Assembly (NCBI GenBank): GCA_965207735.1
Contig: OZ242296.1
Coordinates: forward strand, 3,424,001 to 3,488,000
Length of the DNA: 64,000 nucleotides
Direction: 5' to 3'
From: Candidatus Versatilivorator sp.
GTDB lineage: Bacteria > Acidobacteriota > Terriglobia > Versatilivoradales > Versatilivoraceae
Shown here: in pieces, positions 36,614 through 43,841 of the stretch
Numbering within the stretch: the stretch's first letter is position 1
Layout of the letters: the number at the start of each line of letters is the position of its first letter
Made by a program: the position numbers and the translations under genes
The notes under the pieces: generated by a model
What the model was told of the DNA's origin: nothing
Databases searched by the model: none
The model's input: only the letters and a program-made list of their open reading frames with translations

Positions 36614-37393
36614 ATGAAGGCGACACTCACCGGATTGCGTGGCTTGATGCTGGACCTGGACGGCACTGTCTACGAGGACAACCGCCTGATCCCCGGAGCC
36701 GCCGAAGCCATCGCCGCCCTCAGGGAGCGCGGGTTCCGGCTTCGCTTTGTGACCAACACCACCAACAAGCGACGAGAAACCATCCGGGACAAGCTCCATG
36801 TCCTGGGCATCGAATCCGATGCCTCGGAGATATTCACGGCTCCGGTGGCAGCCAGCCTGATGCTGCGGCGTCATCCGGAGGCCCGCTGCTGGGTGGTCAC
36901 CCGGGGCGACTCCATCCAGGAGTTCCAGGGCCTGAGACTGGACGAGGACCAGCCCGATTTCGTAGTTCTGGGCGATCTGATGGAAGGGTTTACCTTTGAG
37001 CTGCTCAACCGCGTCTTTCGCAAGCTGATGGACGGCGCGGAGCTGATTGCCATGCAGAAGAACCGCTACTGGCTGACCCGGGGGGAACTCACTCTGGATA
37101 TGGGGCCGTTCGTTGCCGCCCTGGAGCACGCCACCGGACGCATGGCCCGGGTGGTGGGCAAGCCCTCGCGGGAATTCTTCCACCTGGCGCTTTCGCACCT
37201 CGGACTGGCCCTGTATCAAGCGGTCATGGTGGGGGACGACTGGGAATCCGACATCGCCGGCGCCCAGCGCGCGGGCCTGCGAACGATCCTGGTCCAAACC
37301 GGCAAGTATCAACCCGCAGACGAGAAAAATCTCGATCCGCAACCGGACGGCGTCATCGAAGGCCTCGGCCGCCTGCCGGAGATCCTGGCTTGA
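36614..37393 (+). CDS. HAD-IIA hydrolase (LHPP/TIGR01458-like)
   Basis: DLDGT, FVTNTT, VVGKP, MVGDDWESDIAGA, TGKY. Confidence 0.92.
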   Translation: MKATLTGLRGLMLDLDGTVYEDNRLIPGAAEAIAALRERGFRLRFVTNTTNKRRETIRDKLHVLGIESDASEIFTAPVAASLMLRRHPEARCWVVTRGDSIQEFQGLRLDEDQPDFVVLGDLMEGFTFELLNRVFRKLMDGAELIAMQKNRYWLTRGELTLDMGPFVAALEHATGRMARVVGKPSREFFHLALSHLGLALYQAVMVGDDWESDIAGAQRAGLRTILVQTGKYQPADEKNLDPQPDGVIEGLGRLPEILA

Positions 37394-37649
37394 CATAGAC
37401 GACTTTAAGGCCGTTCCCCATGGGTCCGCTGGTCATGTCGCCAAGCCCAACCGGCGCAAGCTCATTATTCCTCCCACCACCAACACTGCCAATTCGCCGA
37501 ACGACGGCGACGCCTTCGGCAACTGGAAGGGTAAATGTGCACGATTGAGAGCATTTCCGGGACCACGCTTCGTGACCAACCGGGCAAAAGGAAACAAATC
37601 ATCCTGGACTGAAGGTGCCGATCATTCAGTGTGCTAATGGCGTGAAATA

Positions 37650-37700
37650 TTCGCTGTTAGCGAAATAAGTCTTGACTTCCAGCTCCGAAATGTTTATTTT
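37650..37700 (+). promoter_or_regulatory. Retron promoter with upstream palindromic operator
   Basis: TTCGCT-GTT-AGCGAA (37650-37664); TTGACT (37672)-17 nt-TATTTT (37695). Confidence 0.65.
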
Positions 37701-37729
37701 CAAGATGTTTGGAAAATACGGAAGTAAAA

Positions 37730-37970
37730 GTCATCACACCCTGGGTTGGCTTCGGTCAACCCGAGGAGGGGAAACCCTCTACCGCTTACTGCAGCAATCA
37801 CCCTCTCTCCTCAGTGGTGGTCGCTGAGCGAAGCGAGACCCAACCAATGACCCGTTGGGTCTCTGACACATTTGGATTTAGCTGCCACGTTCCGTCTTTC
37901 TGTTGGTGATGACCTCATTCCGCAATTCGGCGGGTGAGCAACAGAAAGGAGGTGAGAAAATGCTCTCACT
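37730..37970 (+). ncRNA. Retron ncRNA (msr-msd) with extended translational-control leader
   Basis: Flanking IR GTCATCAC (37730-37737)/GTGATGAC (37906-37913); UUCG hairpin 37743-37762; GAAA hairpin 37765-37780; branched msd-like stem with hairpins at 37810-37828 and 37835-37863; lies upstream of the retron RT. Confidence 0.8.
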
Positions 37971-38127
37971 GGGAACCAAACCGTGGCGGCGGCGACCGAA
38001 GAGCGGGGGTAAGCAGTGTAGATGGCTACGTAATCCGCGCCTGCTTCGGACAGCTATCCTTATAGGCATCTGGGCCTATCGTCTATGGAGGATTTGCCGG
38101 GCGCTTAATGGTATTTTCGGAGGCTAG
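37960..38127 (+). CDS. 55-aa cationic amphipathic peptide, putative retron effector/toxin
   Basis: Strong SD AAGGAGGT at 37946-37953; ATG 37960; 13 R/K and no D/E; hydrophobic C-terminal half. Confidence 0.7.
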   Translation: MLSLGTKPWRRRPKSGGKQCRWLRNPRLLRTAILIGIWAYRLWRICRALNGIFGG

Positions 38128-38168
38128 GTCGCTTTCCACTGTGTCAAATTACAACCGGATTGGTAAGG

Positions 38169-38504
38169 ATGGCTGTTGACGTACTATCAGAAGCACTTCG
38201 GCTGATTCGAGTGTTTCACGATGTAAAACAAAAACAATTGGCGGAACAATTGGGTATCTCGAAGTCGTATCTTTCAGAGATCGAACGAGGTAAGAAAATA
38301 CCCTCCATTGAGGTCATTCAGAAATACGCCGCTGAGTTTCAAATGCCAGTTTCGTCCATTCTTTTTTTCGCCGAGCAGTTGGTCGACCCAAACCGGAAAC
38401 CTCCAGATGCCGACCGTGTAAGAGGAATCATTGCCGGAAGGGTCATCAGTTTCCTGCAGTTCATCGAAGCAAAAGCGAAAGAACATGCCGAAGAAGCGCA
38501 CTAA
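38169..38504 (+). CDS. XRE/Cro-C1 HTH protein (retron-associated)
   Basis: EALRLIRVFHDVKQKQLAEQLGISKSYLSEIERGKK; overlaps the RT start by 20 nt. Confidence 0.9.
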   Translation: MAVDVLSEALRLIRVFHDVKQKQLAEQLGISKSYLSEIERGKKIPSIEVIQKYAAEFQMPVSSILFFAEQLVDPNRKPPDADRVRGIIAGRVISFLQFIEAKAKEHAEEAH

Positions 38505-39375
38505 ATGCTACGCGGAGCAGGATAGCCCCTTCTATAAGCTCCGCTCGAAGGCGAAACTTGCAAATCTTCTCTTTCTCAACGTCGATAAATTAGAGTTTCT
38601 TGCGGAATCCGAGGACCTATACTTCGATTTCCCCAAGAAGAAAATGAGTGGCGGTTTCCGCCCGATCAGTGCGCCGCGTGCCGATCTCAAGATTGTACAG
38701 AAGAGAATTGCAGACTTGCTTCAACGCATCACTCCGCCGGATTATCTGTTTGCGCCGGTTTGCGGGCGTTCTTATGTGGACAATGCCAAGCGGCACTTGG
38801 GAGCCAGCTCAGTTCGACACCTAGATATCGAGGATTTCTTCCCGAGTTGCACCGCAAATAAAGTCATATGGTTTTTTCGAAAGCGAATGGAATGCTCCCC
38901 GGACGTTGCAGTACTCCTTCGTGGCGTTGTCACAAGGCGTGGTTCGTTGCCACAGGGCAGCCCATGCAGTCCGATACTAGCGTATCTCTGCTATGTGGAT
39001 ATGTGGGAAGAAATTGAACGCCTAGTAGGCGAGAGTAGTTGCCAACTGAGTGTCTACGCCGACGACCTGACAATTTCAGGAGAAATGGTCCCGGAGAGTC
39101 TTATTTGGGAAATAAAACAAATACTGTTCCGACACGGTTTCCGACACAAACGCAGCAAGGAACGGAGCAAGATATACAAACCTACAAAGATAACCGGTGT
39201 AATCCTCAATGGAAACCAGCTTCTCGTGCCGAACCGGCAGCACCAGAGACTCTATCAAGTTCGTCAGAAGTTGAAGGTTTCCCGCTCGCCTGAGCACCGC
39301 AGGCAGCTTAAGGCACAACTGGTCGGGCGAGAATCACAGTTCCGCCAGATTGTCGGAACTCCGCAAAGTCAGTAG
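38485..39375 (+). CDS. Retron-type reverse transcriptase
   Basis: Region X NAKRH, LDIEDFFPS, LPQGSPCSP, YADD, region Y ITG; 296 aa with no maturase or RNase H domain. Confidence 0.93.
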   Translation: MPKKRTKCYAEQDSPFYKLRSKAKLANLLFLNVDKLEFLAESEDLYFDFPKKKMSGGFRPISAPRADLKIVQKRIADLLQRITPPDYLFAPVCGRSYVDNAKRHLGASSVRHLDIEDFFPSCTANKVIWFFRKRMECSPDVAVLLRGVVTRRGSLPQGSPCSPILAYLCYVDMWEEIERLVGESSCQLSVYADDLTISGEMVPESLIWEIKQILFRHGFRHKRSKERSKIYKPTKITGVILNGNQLLVPNRQHQRLYQVRQKLKVSRSPEHRRQLKAQLVGRESQFRQIVGTPQSQ

Positions 39376-39649
39376 ACCCACCACGGGACTCTTGCTCAAC
39401 TGGCAAGAGAAGAGTCCATAAATAGCAAGTACTCTCCAACCGTGGACTAATCGACAAGAAACGAGGATATTGGTGTCGCGACATGTTTGCGGCATTGGCC
39501 GCTCGAGGGACAATGCGTCCCACCGCCGGTCCGCGTTCCGTCCGGTTGAGCTCCCAGAAATCAGCTTCGCCAGGATATGCTATCCTTTCCACCAAAAACT
39601 TCCTGGCTAATGAAGTGCTGGCATCATCTCCGATGAGAGACTGTGCAAG

Positions 39650-40831
39650 ATGAATCCTGAAACGAGTCCGTTCAGCCCCGGACAACCCGTGCCGATTGAG
39701 TTTTTTATTGGGCGCATCCGTGAGGTCGAGCGTCTGCGGGGCATGGTAAGGGCTAGTACACAAGGCAAATTCCGAATCGGATTTGTCAGCGGAGAACGGG
39801 GCATCGGCAAGAGTTCCCTGGCGTCGTTCGTGCGCTACCTTTCAGAGCACGAGAGCCAAGTCGCAGGATGGCATGTCTTTCTCGGCGGCGTTGAGGATTT
39901 GAATGAGATGCTTCGAAGGACCTTCGATCGCCTGCTGAAGGAAAGCATGGACAAACCCTGGCATGAGCAAATCAGGAACTTTTTTGGAAACCACGTGCGT
40001 CAAGTGGGTCTGTTCGGGGTCACTTTGGAGTTGAATCTCCAGGAAAGCGACTGGTCAACGCTCGCCCATGATTTCGTGCCGACCGTCAGGCGGCTTCTGA
40101 ACGAAATCAAGGACCAGAAGCGTGCGCTATTTCTCATCCTGGATGACATCAACGGTCTCGCGGGTTCCGAAGTTTTCGCCAACTGGCTGAAAAGCACCGT
40201 GGACGAGATCTCCACGTCCCAACAGAAAATGCCTCTCTGCATTCTAGTTGTCGGCCTTGAGGAGAGGCGCCAGGAGCTGGTGTCGAAGCAACCGTCTCTT
40301 GCGCGCGTCTTCGAGTTGATCGACATCGCCCCCTGGTCTGACGATGAAGCCATGGACTTCTACCGGAAGTCATTCGACGCCGTGGGCGCTAAGGTTGCCG
40401 ACAGCGACATGCGCCAACTCGTCCGATTCACCGGCGGACTTCCTGTTCTGGCCCACGAGATCGGCGACGCCGTCTGGCGCACGGCCGAGGGTCCGGAAAT
40501 CGAGTCAAAAGAAGTATGGGAAGGAATCTTGACCGCAGCCGAGGTGATCGGCCGGAAACTGCTGCAACCCCAAGTGTTCAGGGCAATTCGCAGTGAGCGT
40601 TACCGATCCATTCTTCGAAAAATGTCGGGCGCGCCCCGGATGAGCTTTGGAAGATCAGAACTCATGGGACGTCTGTCGGACAACGAAAGAAAGGTCATGG
40701 ACAACTTCCTGCGACGCATGAAACGGCTCGGAGCGCTGGAAACCGATCCCGAGGTCAAAGGTGGATACCAATTCCCCAACCTCCTCCACATGCTTTATTT
40801 CTGGATTGAATCCCAGCGGATTTCCCGATGA
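39650..40831 (+). CDS. AAA/STAND-like ATPase with C-terminal winged helix
   Basis: SPFSPG..V...FIGR, Walker A GERGIGKSS, Walker B FLILDD, TGGLP. Confidence 0.85.
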   Translation: MNPETSPFSPGQPVPIEFFIGRIREVERLRGMVRASTQGKFRIGFVSGERGIGKSSLASFVRYLSEHESQVAGWHVFLGGVEDLNEMLRRTFDRLLKESMDKPWHEQIRNFFGNHVRQVGLFGVTLELNLQESDWSTLAHDFVPTVRRLLNEIKDQKRALFLILDDINGLAGSEVFANWLKSTVDEISTSQQKMPLCILVVGLEERRQELVSKQPSLARVFELIDIAPWSDDEAMDFYRKSFDAVGAKVADSDMRQLVRFTGGLPVLAHEIGDAVWRTAEGPEIESKEVWEGILTAAEVIGRKLLQPQVFRAIRSERYRSILRKMSGAPRMSFGRSELMGRLSDNERKVMDNFLRRMKRLGALETDPEVKGGYQFPNLLHMLYFWIESQRISR

Positions 40832-41144
40832 ATGTACTCGTTGCCTGCGATCAGGGAAGTGCTGCTTTACCCCTTTGACAAACTCGGCTTGGTTAGCTCC
40901 ATTAGCGTCTGCTCCTTGTCGAATACCAGGGCGCGCACATTGCCGACAGCTCGGATACTGCTGAGAAGCGGACCGTTGGCGAGCTCTGGGAACGGAAAAG
41001 CGACGGTAAGGGCCTCTTTCTTGTCGCAGAAAATACGCTGGGCGGAAGGGATGTGCGCCAGCAGCTTATCGACAAGGTCAATCTCGCCTGAACTCCCGAG
41101 CCTCTTTCCCTCCCGGCGTAGCGTATCGGACTCTGGAAGACTTC

Positions 41145-43841
41145 ATGCGTGAGACTCTGCTTAGCTACCTGCCCGAGTTTCTGGACCGCGGCGAGGACAC
41201 GGCGCTTATGGGCCGGTCCGGGCTGCGGACCGACTACTGGTCCTATGGCAGGCTGGCCCGGACTTCCTTCCAGGTGGCCCGGGAACTGGGCTCACGGGGA
41301 CTCGGCCTGGGGGACCGACTGCTGTTGCGGGAAGACAACTCCCCCGAATGGGTGGCCACCTTCCTGGGGTGCCTGATGCGTGGGGTGGTCGTGGTTCCCC
41401 TGGATGTTCAGAGCTCTCCCGAGTTCGTGGCCGGCATCGAGCACCAGACCCAACCCAAGCTGGTTCTTGGAGGTGGCCCCGGCGCCTCACTTGATGACCT
41501 CCAGTCGCCGGTGGATTCTGTCGCGGCTCTTTGCCGACGCGCGACCGCACAGGTGCCGACTCCCGACTGGAGTCATGCCGGCAAGGTCACTGCCGACCAC
41601 CTGGCCGAGATCGTGTTTACCTCGGGGACCACGGCGGCGCCCAAGGGGATTCGACTCACCCATAGAAACTTGCTGGCCAATCTGACTCCACTCGAGACCG
41701 AGATCCGGAAATATGTCAAGTGGGCGGCTCCGGTCCATCCCATCCGCTTCCTGAGCCTGCTGCCACTCAGCCATGTCTTCGGCCAGATGATGGGCATTTT
41801 CGTGCCGCCTCTGCTTGGTGGCCAGGCTCTCTTTCTCAATACCCTCAATCCCTCTGAGATCATCTCGGCCATTCGCCGGGAGCGGATCTCGATGCTGGCC
41901 ACCGTTCCCCGCATCCTGGAGCTGCTGCGGGACAAGATCGAGCGGGACGAGGCCGCCCAAGATAGCCGGCCCCCGCTGGTCGAGCTTTTCGAGCGCAGCC
42001 ACGGTCATCACTGGCTGCGTCATTGGTGGACCTTTCGCCACGTCCGCCGCCGATTCGGCTGGAAGTTCTGGGCTTTCCTTTCGGGAGGCGCAACCCTCGA
42101 TTCCGGCACCGAGGAGTTCTGGAAGAGGTTGGGCTATGCCGTCATGCAGGGGTACGGAATGACCGAAACGGCGGCCGTCATCAGCCTTGCCCACCCCCTT
42201 CGACCCGGCCGCGGCTCGATCGGCAAACCCATGCCCGGCCAGGAAATCAAGCTGGACGAAGGGGGAGAGATCCTGGTGAGAGGCCGCAACATCTCGCCCG
42301 GCTACTGGGGGGCGGAGGATGCGCCCCTGACCGACGAGGAGGGTTGGCTGCGAACCGGGGACCTGGGCCAACGGGACGCCAGGGGAAACCTCTATTTCCG
42401 CGGCAGGCGCAAGGAGGTCATCGTCACCTCAGCGGGCTTGAACGTCTACCCCGCCGATATCGAAACGGTTCTCAACCGGCAACCCGAGATCGGCGCCAGC
42501 GCGGTGGTGGGAGTGAACGGAGCGCAGGGCCCCGAACCGGTGGCCGTGCTCATCCTGAGAAGCCCGGAGGCGGACCCTTCCACCGCGGTCCAACGCGCCA
42601 ACCAGCACCTCAGCCCCTACCAGCAGATCCGGCACTGGGTGGTCTGGCCCGAGCGCGATTTTCCGCGGACGGCCACTCAGAAGGTACGCAAGCGGGACCT
42701 GGTCCGGTTCGCGAGCCGGCAGGGAGCGGAACCGGGCGGTCAGGCTGGAGAGGAGCAGGGAAGCCTGCTGGGCGAAATCCTGACACTGGTCGAGGGCATC
42801 ACCGGGACCTCGCCGCGGCGGCGGGACCGCGAAGCCAATCTGACCTCCGATCTCAAGCTGGATTCCCTGGCCAGGGTCGCGCTGATCACCCAATTGGAAG
42901 ATCGCTTCCGGATGGACCTGGACGAATCCAAAGTCACCGAAGCTCTTACTCTGGGTGACCTGGAAAGGCTGCTCCGCCGCCCGGACGGTCTACCGGAGGC
43001 CGGCCGGGGCGAGGCGGCTCCTCCAAGTCCTGAAACCGGTGGCGACCCGCGGGCTCCATCGGGACCACGCCCGGACCCGGGCTCCTCGCGGTCGCACCCG
43101 GAAACTTCCGTCAGGCCCTGGCGCCCTTATCCCTACCCCTACTGGTCCTTGAGGCGGCCCGCCACCTGGATGCGCTTCCTGTTCCAGCACTGTCTCATCT
43201 GGCCGCTCACCCATTTGCTCTGCTGGACCCGGGTGCGTGGACGAAGACACTGGCGCGGACTTCGGGAGCCCGTGCTGGTGATCGCCAACCACGTGACCTT
43301 TTTCGATCCGGCGCTCGTCCTGGCCCGAATGCCCTGGCGCTACCGGAACCGCCTGGCTGTTGCCATGATCGGAGAAAGGCTGAGGGACTTTCGATACCCG
43401 CCGCCTGGGCGCGGGCTTGCCCGCTTCAGCGACTACCTGGCCTACGGCGCGACTGCCGGCGGGTTCAATGCCTTTCCGCTGCCCAGGCAAACCGGGTTCC
43501 GGCGCAGCTTCGACTACGCCGGGGAGGCCATGGATCGCGGCTACAGCGTCCTGGTTTTTCCGGAGGGATCACGCACCAGGGATGGCGAAATGCAGCCCTT
43601 CCAGGCTGGAATCGGGCTGCTGGCGGCCGGTCTGGGTGCCCCGGTCGTCCCCGCCAGGATCGAAGGATTGTTTGAGCTCAAGAAAAGGAGATTCGGAGGA
43701 ATCCGCTGGCCCTTCACCCGGCCCGGTCAGGTTTCCGTCACCTTCGGTCCACCGCTGCGGCCCTCGCCCTCGGACTCTCCCCAGGACCTGACCCGGGAGT
43801 TGGAGAAACGGGTCAGAGGATTGAGTCGCCGAAAGGCCTGA
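41145..43841 (+). CDS. Acyl-CoA/AMP-binding + ACP + 1-acylglycerol-3-P acyltransferase fusion
   Basis: FTSGTT, GYGMTE, LRTGD; LDSL phosphopantetheine site; ANHVTFFD and VFPEGSRT PlsC motifs. Confidence 0.9.
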   Translation: MRETLLSYLPEFLDRGEDTALMGRSGLRTDYWSYGRLARTSFQVARELGSRGLGLGDRLLLREDNSPEWVATFLGCLMRGVVVVPLDVQSSPEFVAGIEHQTQPKLVLGGGPGASLDDLQSPVDSVAALCRRATAQVPTPDWSHAGKVTADHLAEIVFTSGTTAAPKGIRLTHRNLLANLTPLETEIRKYVKWAAPVHPIRFLSLLPLSHVFGQMMGIFVPPLLGGQALFLNTLNPSEIISAIRRERISMLATVPRILELLRDKIERDEAAQDSRPPLVELFERSHGHHWLRHWWTFRHVRRRFGWKFWAFLSGGATLDSGTEEFWKRLGYAVMQGYGMTETAAVISLAHPLRPGRGSIGKPMPGQEIKLDEGGEILVRGRNISPGYWGAEDAPLTDEEGWLRTGDLGQRDARGNLYFRGRRKEVIVTSAGLNVYPADIETVLNRQPEIGASAVVGVNGAQGPEPVAVLILRSPEADPSTAVQRANQHLSPYQQIRHWVVWPERDFPRTATQKVRKRDLVRFASRQGAEPGGQAGEEQGSLLGEILTLVEGITGTSPRRRDREANLTSDLKLDSLARVALITQLEDRFRMDLDESKVTEALTLGDLERLLRRPDGLPEAGRGEAAPPSPETGGDPRAPSGPRPDPGSSRSHPETSVRPWRPYPYPYWSLRRPATWMRFLFQHCLIWPLTHLLCWTRVRGRRHWRGLREPVLVIANHVTFFDPALVLARMPWRYRNRLAVAMIGERLRDFRYPPPGRGLARFSDYLAYGATAGGFNAFPLPRQTGFRRSFDYAGEAMDRGYSVLVFPEGSRTRDGEMQPFQAGIGLLAAGLGAPVVPARIEGLFELKKRRFGGIRWPFTRPGQVSVTFGPPLRPSPSDSPQDLTRELEKRVRGLSRRKA

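Follow-up and report, generated by a model that had tools for sequence, protein, structure and literature searches.

A complete type VI retron cassette with a small-protein gene inside its predicted RNA in the acidobacterium Candidatus Versatilivorator sp.

The locus described here lies on the + strand at positions 37650–39375 of a 64-kb window (the whole stretch of DNA that was analysed, from contig OZ242296.1 of assembly GCA_965207735.1, Candidatus Versatilivorator sp.; all coordinates are positions in this window). By its protein models and gene order it is a complete type VI retron cassette, and it probably (at roughly 0.6) works like Retron-Vpa2 of Vibrio parahaemolyticus, whose RNA, according to the main text of Zhang et al. 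(bioRxiv 10.1101/2025.10.22.683967), encodes within it a small toxin under translational repression. Palindrome, promoter, leader, small protein (SP) gene, helix-turn-helix (HTH) gene and reverse transcriptase (RT) gene follow one another on the + strand, and the order RNA, SP, HTH, RT is the one described for type VI in that text. Retrons of this kind have been described before, in the main text of this preprint and of a second one, on Retron-Sen3 (Garcia-Rodriguez et al., bioRxiv 10.64898/2026.04.27.721009); the present locus is a new member with two added details. The three genes of the cassette are as follows.

37960–38127, + strand: SP, 55 aa, predicted toxin; AGGAGG 7 nt before the ATG.
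38169–38504, + strand: HTH protein of type VI retrons (XRE/Cro family), 111 aa; start at ATG 38169, alternative TTG 38160.
38485–39375, + strand: type VI retron RT, 296 aa; 20-nt overlap with the HTH gene.

Type VI was defined by the classification of Mestre et al. 2020 (type VI = clade 3) as used by PADLOC, with assignment by model score; an RT of this class, an overlapping Cro/C1-type HTH gene, an upstream SP gene and an intact RT catalytic site were all found. The RT matches PADLOC RT_VI at 1.3e-93 (311.4 bits, model positions 1–272 of 279), the next model being RT_III-A at 151.6 bits; it also matches Pfam RVT_1, and NCBIfam retron models below their cut-offs only. All 12 of its 12 solved-structure matches are retron RTs. 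The motifs NAKRH (NAxxH), YADD (residues 191–194) and ITG are read in the translation; no homologue among 37 departs from N100, A101, Y191, D193 or G238, and at least 90% of them have each of H104, A192 and T237. The HTH protein matches PADLOC HTH_VI (9.9e-32, 107 bits) and Pfam HTH_3 (8.8e-14), and an alignment of 28 homologues has 22 invariant columns. A first-pass annotation of the window, made from the letters and their open reading frames (ORFs), had proposed the 55-aa ORF, an XRE-HTH gene overlapping a 296-aa RT with these three motifs, and a type VI architecture, to be checked with PADLOC and by the kinship of the RT; each of these is borne out by the results just given. Its HTH ORF (38160/38169–38504) is present, with the start now refined to ATG 38169 as the most likely one, as in homologues. 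The Vibrio type VI retron with a repressed small toxin that it mentioned is likewise on record, as Retron-Vpa2.

Around and within the SP gene a structured RNA is predicted, whose parts are given in order of position (RBS, ribosome-binding site; DR, direct repeat).

37707–38146, + strand: hybrid RNA (hyRNA) of msr-msd-like leader, riboregulator, SP coding sequence and fold-back 3' tail; ends predicted.
37730–37737, + strand: 5' element a1 (GUCAUCAC), complementary to DR1 and DR2.
37742–37763, + strand: msr-like hairpin P1 with UUCG loop; 6 of 6 pairs changed on both sides.
37765–37780, + strand: msr-like hairpin P2 with GAAA loop; 4 of 7 pairs changed on both sides.
37784–37834, + strand: branched stem P3 with conserved base and variable top; 2 of 4 pairs of the base helix compensated.
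37835–37863, + strand: P4, a perfect 10-bp hairpin (37835–37844 with 37854–37863), DR1 in its loop.
37846–37852, + strand: DR1, AAUGACC, in the P4 loop.
37866–37876 with 38135–38144 in the 3' tail, + strand: long-range helix H6; 6 of 8 pairs compensated.
37881–37889 with 37982–37990 (SP codons 8–11), + strand: helix H7; 7 of 9 pairs compensated.
37896–37953, + strand: riboregulator, with anti-RBS arm, internal loop holding DR2/a2, inner hairpin and 3' arm.
37896–37905 with 37939–37948, + strand: anti-RBS helix H8/H9; 9 of 10 pairs compensated; continues into the Shine-Dalgarno sequence AGGAGG (37948–37953).
37906–37913, + strand: DR2/a2 element (GUGAUGAC), in the riboregulator internal loop.
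37908–37914, + strand: DR2, GAUGACC, in the riboregulator internal loop.
37952–37969, + strand: start-codon hairpin, AUG in its loop.
37991–37997 with 38127–38133, + strand: helix H10; 4 of 7 pairs compensated and 3 invariant; encloses the rest of the SP gene.
38127–38146, + strand: conserved 3' tail (GGUCGCUUUCCACUGUGUCA), bearing the 3' arms of H10 and H6.

The 3' arm of H10 is made up of the last base of the SP stop codon and the GUCGCU that follows it. The leader measures 253 nt from the predicted transcript start (~37707) to the SP start codon and folds better than shuffled sequences (z -3.1 for 37700–37965; z -3.6 for 37700–38165). Conservation was read from an alignment of 16 loci, covering the SP gene with 270 nt upstream and 40 nt downstream, in which RNAalifold returned 66 pairs, 45 of them with compensatory changes. 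For counting, a1/a2 and the P3 base were added and 11 short or isolated pairs, nearly all inside the SP coding region, were dropped. In the resulting set of 67 pairs, 94.6% of cells are paired (37–51% when the partners are slid by 1–3 columns) and 44 pairs are changed on both sides (11–20 when slid); none of 500 shuffles equalled the observed values on any measure. By this comparative evidence, leader, SP gene and 3' tail are one conserved RNA fold. The middle of P3 varies between loci in length and sequence, and, if it corresponds to the long stem of Retron-Vpa2, P3 may be the main template of DNA synthesis.

The structured leader of ~240 nt, its 8-bp flanking inverted repeat (GTCATCAC at 37730–37737 with GTGATGAC at 37906–37913), the UUCG and GAAA hairpins, the branched stem and the perfect 10-bp hairpin had all been seen in the first-pass annotation and are all present. 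Its account of the RNA as a leader stood in part: the leader structure is real, but the predicted functional RNA runs on through the SP gene to ~38146. The conservation of the leader structure in homologues, on which it had staked its reading, is given by the pair counts over the 16 loci.

The translation start of the SP gene is buried. In local folds of 28 loci, pairing takes up an average of 8.9 of the 11 bases of the SP ribosome site, the fold at the SP start has a mean z of -2.6 against mononucleotide shuffles (20 of 28 loci below -2), and in most loci a hairpin loop contains the start codon. Two further pairings came up in the same region. A candidate helix P0 (ACGGAA at 37718–37723 with UUCCGU at 37890–37895) has a widespread CGGA/UCCG core, a few compensated changes in its flanks and a position that crosses a1/a2, and its support is weak. 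A 13-nt inverted repeat (38050–38062 with 38164–38176), by which the HTH start region would pair with the SP coding region, was rejected: it is not kept in 25 other loci and does not rise above shuffled controls.

The direct repeats change together. Over the 28 loci the stretch common to DR1 and DR2 has a mean length of 6.1 nt and changes in step, and the a1 core takes at least eight forms (among them GUCAUC, GUCGUC, GUCUUU, GUUCUC, UCCUU and GUUACU) with both repeats following. The complementary run of a1 averages 6.4 nt to DR2 and 6.0 nt to DR1, and falls to 5.2 nt and 4.4 nt, respectively, when a1 is swapped in from another locus. In these alignments, then, a1, DR1 and DR2 co-vary three ways. 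The pairing of a1 with DR2 is the 8-bp flanking inverted repeat; DR2 abuts the anti-RBS arm directly, and the pairing crosses H6–H9, so that a pseudoknot or an alternative conformation is to be expected. In Retron-Vpa2, 7-nt direct repeats occupy a loop of the template part and the riboregulator loop, one repeat in each, and it is proposed there that the DNA copy of the first repeat pairs with the second and frees the ribosome site (main text of bioRxiv 10.1101/2025.10.22.683967). An element of the a1 type, complementary to both repeats, was not found in the text of either type VI preprint (bioRxiv 10.1101/2025.10.22.683967 and 10.64898/2026.04.27.721009), whose figures and supplements may show it.

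The small protein belongs to a conserved family. Residues 1–30 of the window SP carry a net charge of +10, a hydrophobic core spans ~27–43, and the C-terminal helix (the last third) is amphipathic; a basic front with a hydrophobic or amphipathic rear fits the description of SP toxins in the main text of Zhang et al. An iterated profile search seeded with this SP was made over 36 loci with upstream DNA, and a homologous ORF of 49–70 aa was found in 33 of the 36; the loci in which none was found are L048 (just 357 nt of upstream DNA), L035 (RT frameshifted) and L046. The family follows the pattern RRR...W..WLRNPRLL...YRLWR; its members are rich in arginine at the front and have a W..WLRNPRLL stretch and, within a hydrophobic helix, YRLWR. 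Among single-base codon changes in nine close pairs, 61 are synonymous and 72 non-synonymous (46% synonymous vs 26% expected at random); the codon bases are also constrained by RNA pairing. The window SP has no Pfam or PADLOC match, and its best score in a protein atlas search, 0.84, is under the meaningful level. A complex prediction for HTH (28-row alignment) and SP (30-row alignment) scored 0.00, which is uninformative either way.

Upstream of the predicted transcript start lie the elements that may set transcription of the operon.

37650–37664, strand not applicable: 15-bp palindrome TTCGCT-GTT-AGCGAA (TTCGCTGTTAGCGAA), 7 nt upstream of the -35 box.
37672–37700, + strand: sigma-70-like promoter TTGACT-17-TATTTT, 9 of 12 consensus matches.

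The palindrome is unique in the window at no more than 1 mismatch (0.11 expected by chance). A 6-N3-6 palindrome of the TTCGCT/AGCGAA family is found at the same distance from the SP gene in 26 of 27 related loci, and with two mismatches in the 27th; elsewhere there are 14 such sites in 147 kb. In loci L044 and L063 the half-sites have changed jointly (TTCACT/AGTGAA). Because the spacer is fixed, the half-sites are conserved and both halves co-change in two loci, a DNA site of a dimeric HTH protein fits better than an RNA hairpin, and the palindrome is likely the operator of the HTH protein. The terms operator, palindrom- and autoregulat- are missing from the main text of both preprints (bioRxiv 10.1101/2025.10.22.683967 and 10.64898/2026.04.27.721009), and DNA-binding from that of the former; figures and supplements may show such features. 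The promoter, also named in the first-pass annotation, is of a quality of which ~2 sites are expected by chance in 4 kb. In relatives the TTGAnn box, placed alike in most, lies 7–8 nt past the palindrome, with a TAnnnT box 16–18 nt further on, and 16 of 29 related loci score at least 8 of 12 by a crude automatic pick; the transcript start is predicted near 37707. An 11-nt perfect inverted repeat (37546–37556 with 37958–37968) links a site upstream of the promoter with the SP start codon; ~0.7 are expected by chance by our own estimate.

The cassette sits in a variable hotspot of a genome that is a single 5.26-Mb contig.

36614–37393: HAD-hydrolase gene, upstream flank of the hotspot.
~37420–39520, + strand: retron cassette as insertion/deletion unit; ends approximate, within ~25 nt.
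39650–40831, + strand: P-loop ATPase, 393 aa (Pfam AAA_16, ATPase_2, nSTAND1).
From 41145: acyl-CoA ligase/acyltransferase gene, downstream flank of the hotspot.

Homology to the same-genus genomes G401 and G402 breaks off at 37393–37419 and resumes at 39520–39526, and the retron is therefore a 2.1-kb cassette; no target-site duplication or att-like repeat was found at its ends. The HAD-hydrolase and acyl-CoA ligase genes are 63 nt apart in 4 of the 12 same-genus genomes with a readable site, and assorted inserts lie between them in the others. GC is ~0.48–0.55 over 37250–41000 and ~0.61–0.68 on the flanks. The lower-GC insert of the first-pass annotation was thus rightly seen as a drop in GC, but the low-GC stretch (37.4–41.1 kb) consists of two independent modules, retron cassette and ATPase, of which the cassette takes up only ~37420–39520. 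A scan of 37000–41500 against Rfam, msr family included, gave no match at E <= 1.

Of 14 genomes of the genus, 3 carry a retron of this type. The window locus and G409 retain all three ORFs and each conserved RNA helix in intact form; in the copy in G401 (L032:2947-3892, 78% identical), the RT is split into two overlapping frames near residue 95, by a frameshift or an assembly error, and SP, HTH and RNA appear intact. The ATPase matches no PADLOC model and no solved structure; it recurs in the hotspot and may perhaps be an undescribed defence or regulatory gene. At the place of the retron, G402 carries an ORF of 485 aa (L129:832-2289) whose front is hydrophobic and which contains a long series of pentapeptide-like repeats; it has no PADLOC match and is further cargo of the same hotspot.

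Relatives of the RT in a large protein collection number 898 at E <= 1e-20 and are nearly all metagenomic; the best 120 of these 898 are 61–100% identical and almost none is named. Nine loci come from species genomes and a further 80 from metagenomes. The relatives with a taxonomic label are a metagenome-assembled genome (MAG) of Candidatus Versatilivorator (Acidobacteriota, Terriglobia; RT 83% identical, same flanking genes); a Terriglobia MAG (78%); MAGs labelled Alphaproteobacteria, Roseibium, Gammaproteobacteria, Arenicellales and Pseudohongiella, together with Candidatus Azophilus (56–63%), all of them, Candidatus Azophilus apart, Alpha- or Gammaproteobacteria; and plasmids of Alphaproteobacteria and one cyanobacterium (40–47%). 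Two plasmid relatives have a 55-aa ORF annotated 'hypothetical protein' and a TIR-domain gene after the RT; on the Roseobacteraceae plasmids (L140:2411-3376 and L141:2411-3376, RT 46–47% identical) the TIR-domain gene begins 20 nt past the RT, which suggests that some members of this retron branch have a second effector.

That such systems are little described in this lineage, as the first-pass annotation had it, holds loosely: 20 of 401 sampled genomes of the phylum have an RT_VI match at E <= 1e-40, a threshold that admits other retron types too. Type VI is among the taxonomically broadest retron types in the text of a metagenome survey (PMC13712802).

A second, distantly related retron is present in the same genome at 4.58 Mb (L002, C1:4581547-4585416; RT 30% identical), with an upstream ORF (887–1159), an HTH gene (1188–1502) and an RT gene (1465–2427). 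Its RT scores 234 bits with RT_V and 226 bits with RT_VI, its HTH 88 bits with HTH_VI, and its upstream ORF of 90 aa matches PADLOC SP_VI (2.7e-6); the upstream 670 nt fold with z -5.6, and an IS-like transposase ORF lies just downstream on the opposite strand. By its scores it stands at the type V/VI border. Fifteen scattered chromosomal RT ORFs of 442–459 aa (e.g. L003–L008), 12 of them with an identical score, match RT_VI weakly and are probably copies of a mobile group II intron.

Under the preferred reading, modelled on Retron-Vpa2, RT, HTH protein and hybrid RNA (~37707–38146, one transcript by homology with Retron-Vpa2) would form a complex, and in the resting state the small protein, predicted to be toxic by the same homology, would not be translated. 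On phage infection, reverse-transcribed DNA with P3 and P4 (~37784–37863) as its template would build up; the DNA copy of the P4-loop repeat would pair with the repeat of the riboregulator loop (37906–37914), thereby opening the anti-RBS helix; toxin synthesis and arrest of the infected cell would follow. Because a1 has the sequence of the DNA copy, it would, judging by its conservation, keep one of the two repeats occupied while the RNA is at rest; the HTH protein, on similar grounds, would also bind the palindrome and control the operon promoter. A role in anti-phage abortive infection is suggested by homology only, and the patchiness and mobility of the cassette (3 of 14 genus genomes; relatives on plasmids) are typical of defence genes.

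A bolder, joint claim goes beyond this and is offered tentatively, being less likely than not: that the hybrid RNA of type VI acts as a switch of three parts, with the HTH protein as a DNA-binding autoregulator. In element a1 the RNA would carry its own copy of the loop in the reverse-transcribed DNA, and at rest a1 would occupy one direct repeat; DNA synthesis through P4 would remove one partner and add a competing DNA strand, so that the riboregulator would open only once DNA accumulates. In parallel, the HTH protein would set operon transcription through the TTCGCT-N3-AGCGAA site before the -35 box.

Several results weigh against the working model taken from Retron-Vpa2. The coding signal of the SP is real but moderate, and between the two closest loci the SP has 1 synonymous and 7 non-synonymous changes. 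None of 30 members of the SP family matches a PADLOC model, SP_VI included, at E <= 1, so that the SP is named by its position and conservation, not by cluster. No conserved G was seen next to H6 or after a1, where the priming G of a canonical retron would be expected. The conserved pairings cannot all form as a simple nested fold, since a1/a2 crosses H6–H9; the operator role is argued from conservation alone; and among the sequencing runs listed as containing the stretch there are DNA or unclassified runs only, and no RNA run. A sequestered ribosome site, moreover, is no proof of translational control, because that of Retron-Sen3 is buried too and control there, in the main text of Garcia-Rodriguez et al., is post-translational.

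This last point leads to the Sen3-like alternative, in which SP and single-stranded DNA would be constitutive, the HTH protein a direct-contact antitoxin, and the loss of RecBCD activity in infection the event that releases the toxin. The same SP-HTH-RT order, an HTH protein of the same family and, as far as the main text goes, the long-range pairing that also flanks the SP gene of Retron-Sen3 speak for it, and the tree of the Toro group has several type VI sublineages, so that the mechanism may differ by lineage. It is nevertheless considered unlikely here: the co-varying direct repeats in hairpin and riboregulator loops are the feature that the main text of Zhang et al. ties to DNA-dependent derepression, and the SP has the 55 aa of Retron-Vpa2, not 79 aa, and no SP_VI match. 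The two modes are not mutually exclusive and may coexist. An improbable alternative takes the cassette for a selfish, toxin-antitoxin-like addiction module, or for a decaying passenger of the hotspot, with no present phage-defence role in its host. A variable site between two housekeeping genes (12 same-genus genomes), the frameshifted RT of one congener, a cassette GC 13 points under that of the genome and the 7:1 excess of non-synonymous SP changes from the nearest copy would suit it; against it stand the intact ORFs and helices here and in G409, the intact RT active site, and the defence reported in preprint text for the type VI retrons that have been tested (Vpa2, Eco12, Sen3). Least credible by far is an RT-plus-ATPase system, not of type VI, with the downstream ATPase as effector. 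The ATPase gene is on the same strand, 274 nt past the RT and in the same low-GC stretch, and its Pfam domains would be in keeping with such a role; but among loci L009–L116 it accompanies the retron solely in the syntenic congener L028, and it occurs at the hotspot without the retron in G402, G408 and G401 (78–99.5% identical; 99.5% in G402). As retron effector it was rejected on this synteny.

With the Retron-Vpa2 model kept as the preferred one, the locus bears on the only retron type whose working was still unexplained before the two preprints (2025–2026), each, by its main text, on one enterobacterial or Vibrio example. It belongs to a large, almost wholly unnamed branch (the 898 RT relatives), and the published RNA layout, with toxin gene in the template RNA, buried ribosome site and paired direct repeats, holds far outside Proteobacteria. 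The comparative set turns the proposal that DNA opens the riboregulator into precise, testable base pairs (a1, DR1, DR2) and suggests where the HTH protein likely has its operator. In its host the locus would be a small mobile defence cassette in a variable hotspot, defence being suggested by homology.

Compared with Retron-Vpa2 as described in the main text of Zhang et al., the likeness extends from genes to RNA. The operon order (RNA, SP, HTH, RT) is the same in both; both SPs have 55 aa and a hydrophobic C-terminal part, and the Vpa2 residues I39, F43 and F45 are in register with I-Y-R-L-x-R-x of the present SP family (a numbering check only, not a sequence alignment). The RNA is ~440 nt as predicted here and ~470 nt in Retron-Vpa2. 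The hybrid RNA of Retron-Vpa2 has three arms from a central node, the second with the ribosome site and start codon and the third with the rest of the SP gene, and its 3' end anneals back; three arms and a 3' fold-back are predicted here as well (H6, H7, H10), with ribosome site and start codon in stem-loops and with two short direct repeats, the first in a template-part loop and the second in that of the riboregulator. The DNA product of Retron-Vpa2 comprises a 63-nt long stem and an essential 23-nt 5' hairpin, and on this analogy P3 together with P4 would be templated here. The host is an acidobacterium here and a Vibrio there, and the present locus is known from sequence alone; a1 and the palindrome ahead of the promoter are additions relative to the main text on Retron-Vpa2, whose figures or supplements may show them.

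Retron-Sen3 of Salmonella enterica (cl2075 lineage), in which SP and DNA are constitutive and the toxin is controlled after translation, has the SP-HTH-RT module in common with this locus. According to the main text of Garcia-Rodriguez et al., it also has a structured RNA within ~280 nt of the SP start, terminal inverted repeats, a stem that contains the SP ribosome site, a long-range pairing on either side of the SP gene, one arm of which follows directly on the stop codon (here H10 and H6), and covariation within the SP coding region. The SP of Retron-Sen3 (cluster cl2075) has ~79 aa with an N-terminal extension, whereas the present one has 55 aa; the family described here lacks an SP_VI match, whereas the SP of the second retron of the same genome has one. 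Set beside Retron-Sen3, the present palindrome, with its fixed 3-nt spacer, conserved half-sites and place before the -35 box, reads as a DNA site; a common origin is possible.

Canonical retrons, e.g. Ec86 (Retron-Eco1), share the RT with NAxxH, YADD and VTG/ITG, and an inverted repeat (here a1/a2) that encloses short hairpins and, after them, a longer, variable stem. Unlike Ec86, the present locus has no recognised conserved priming G at the expected place and no Rfam match, and its effector gene lies inside the RNA. The logic of type VI, as published in the text of the preprint on Retron-Vpa2, is inverted relative to canonical retrons: it is the DNA that switches the toxin on.

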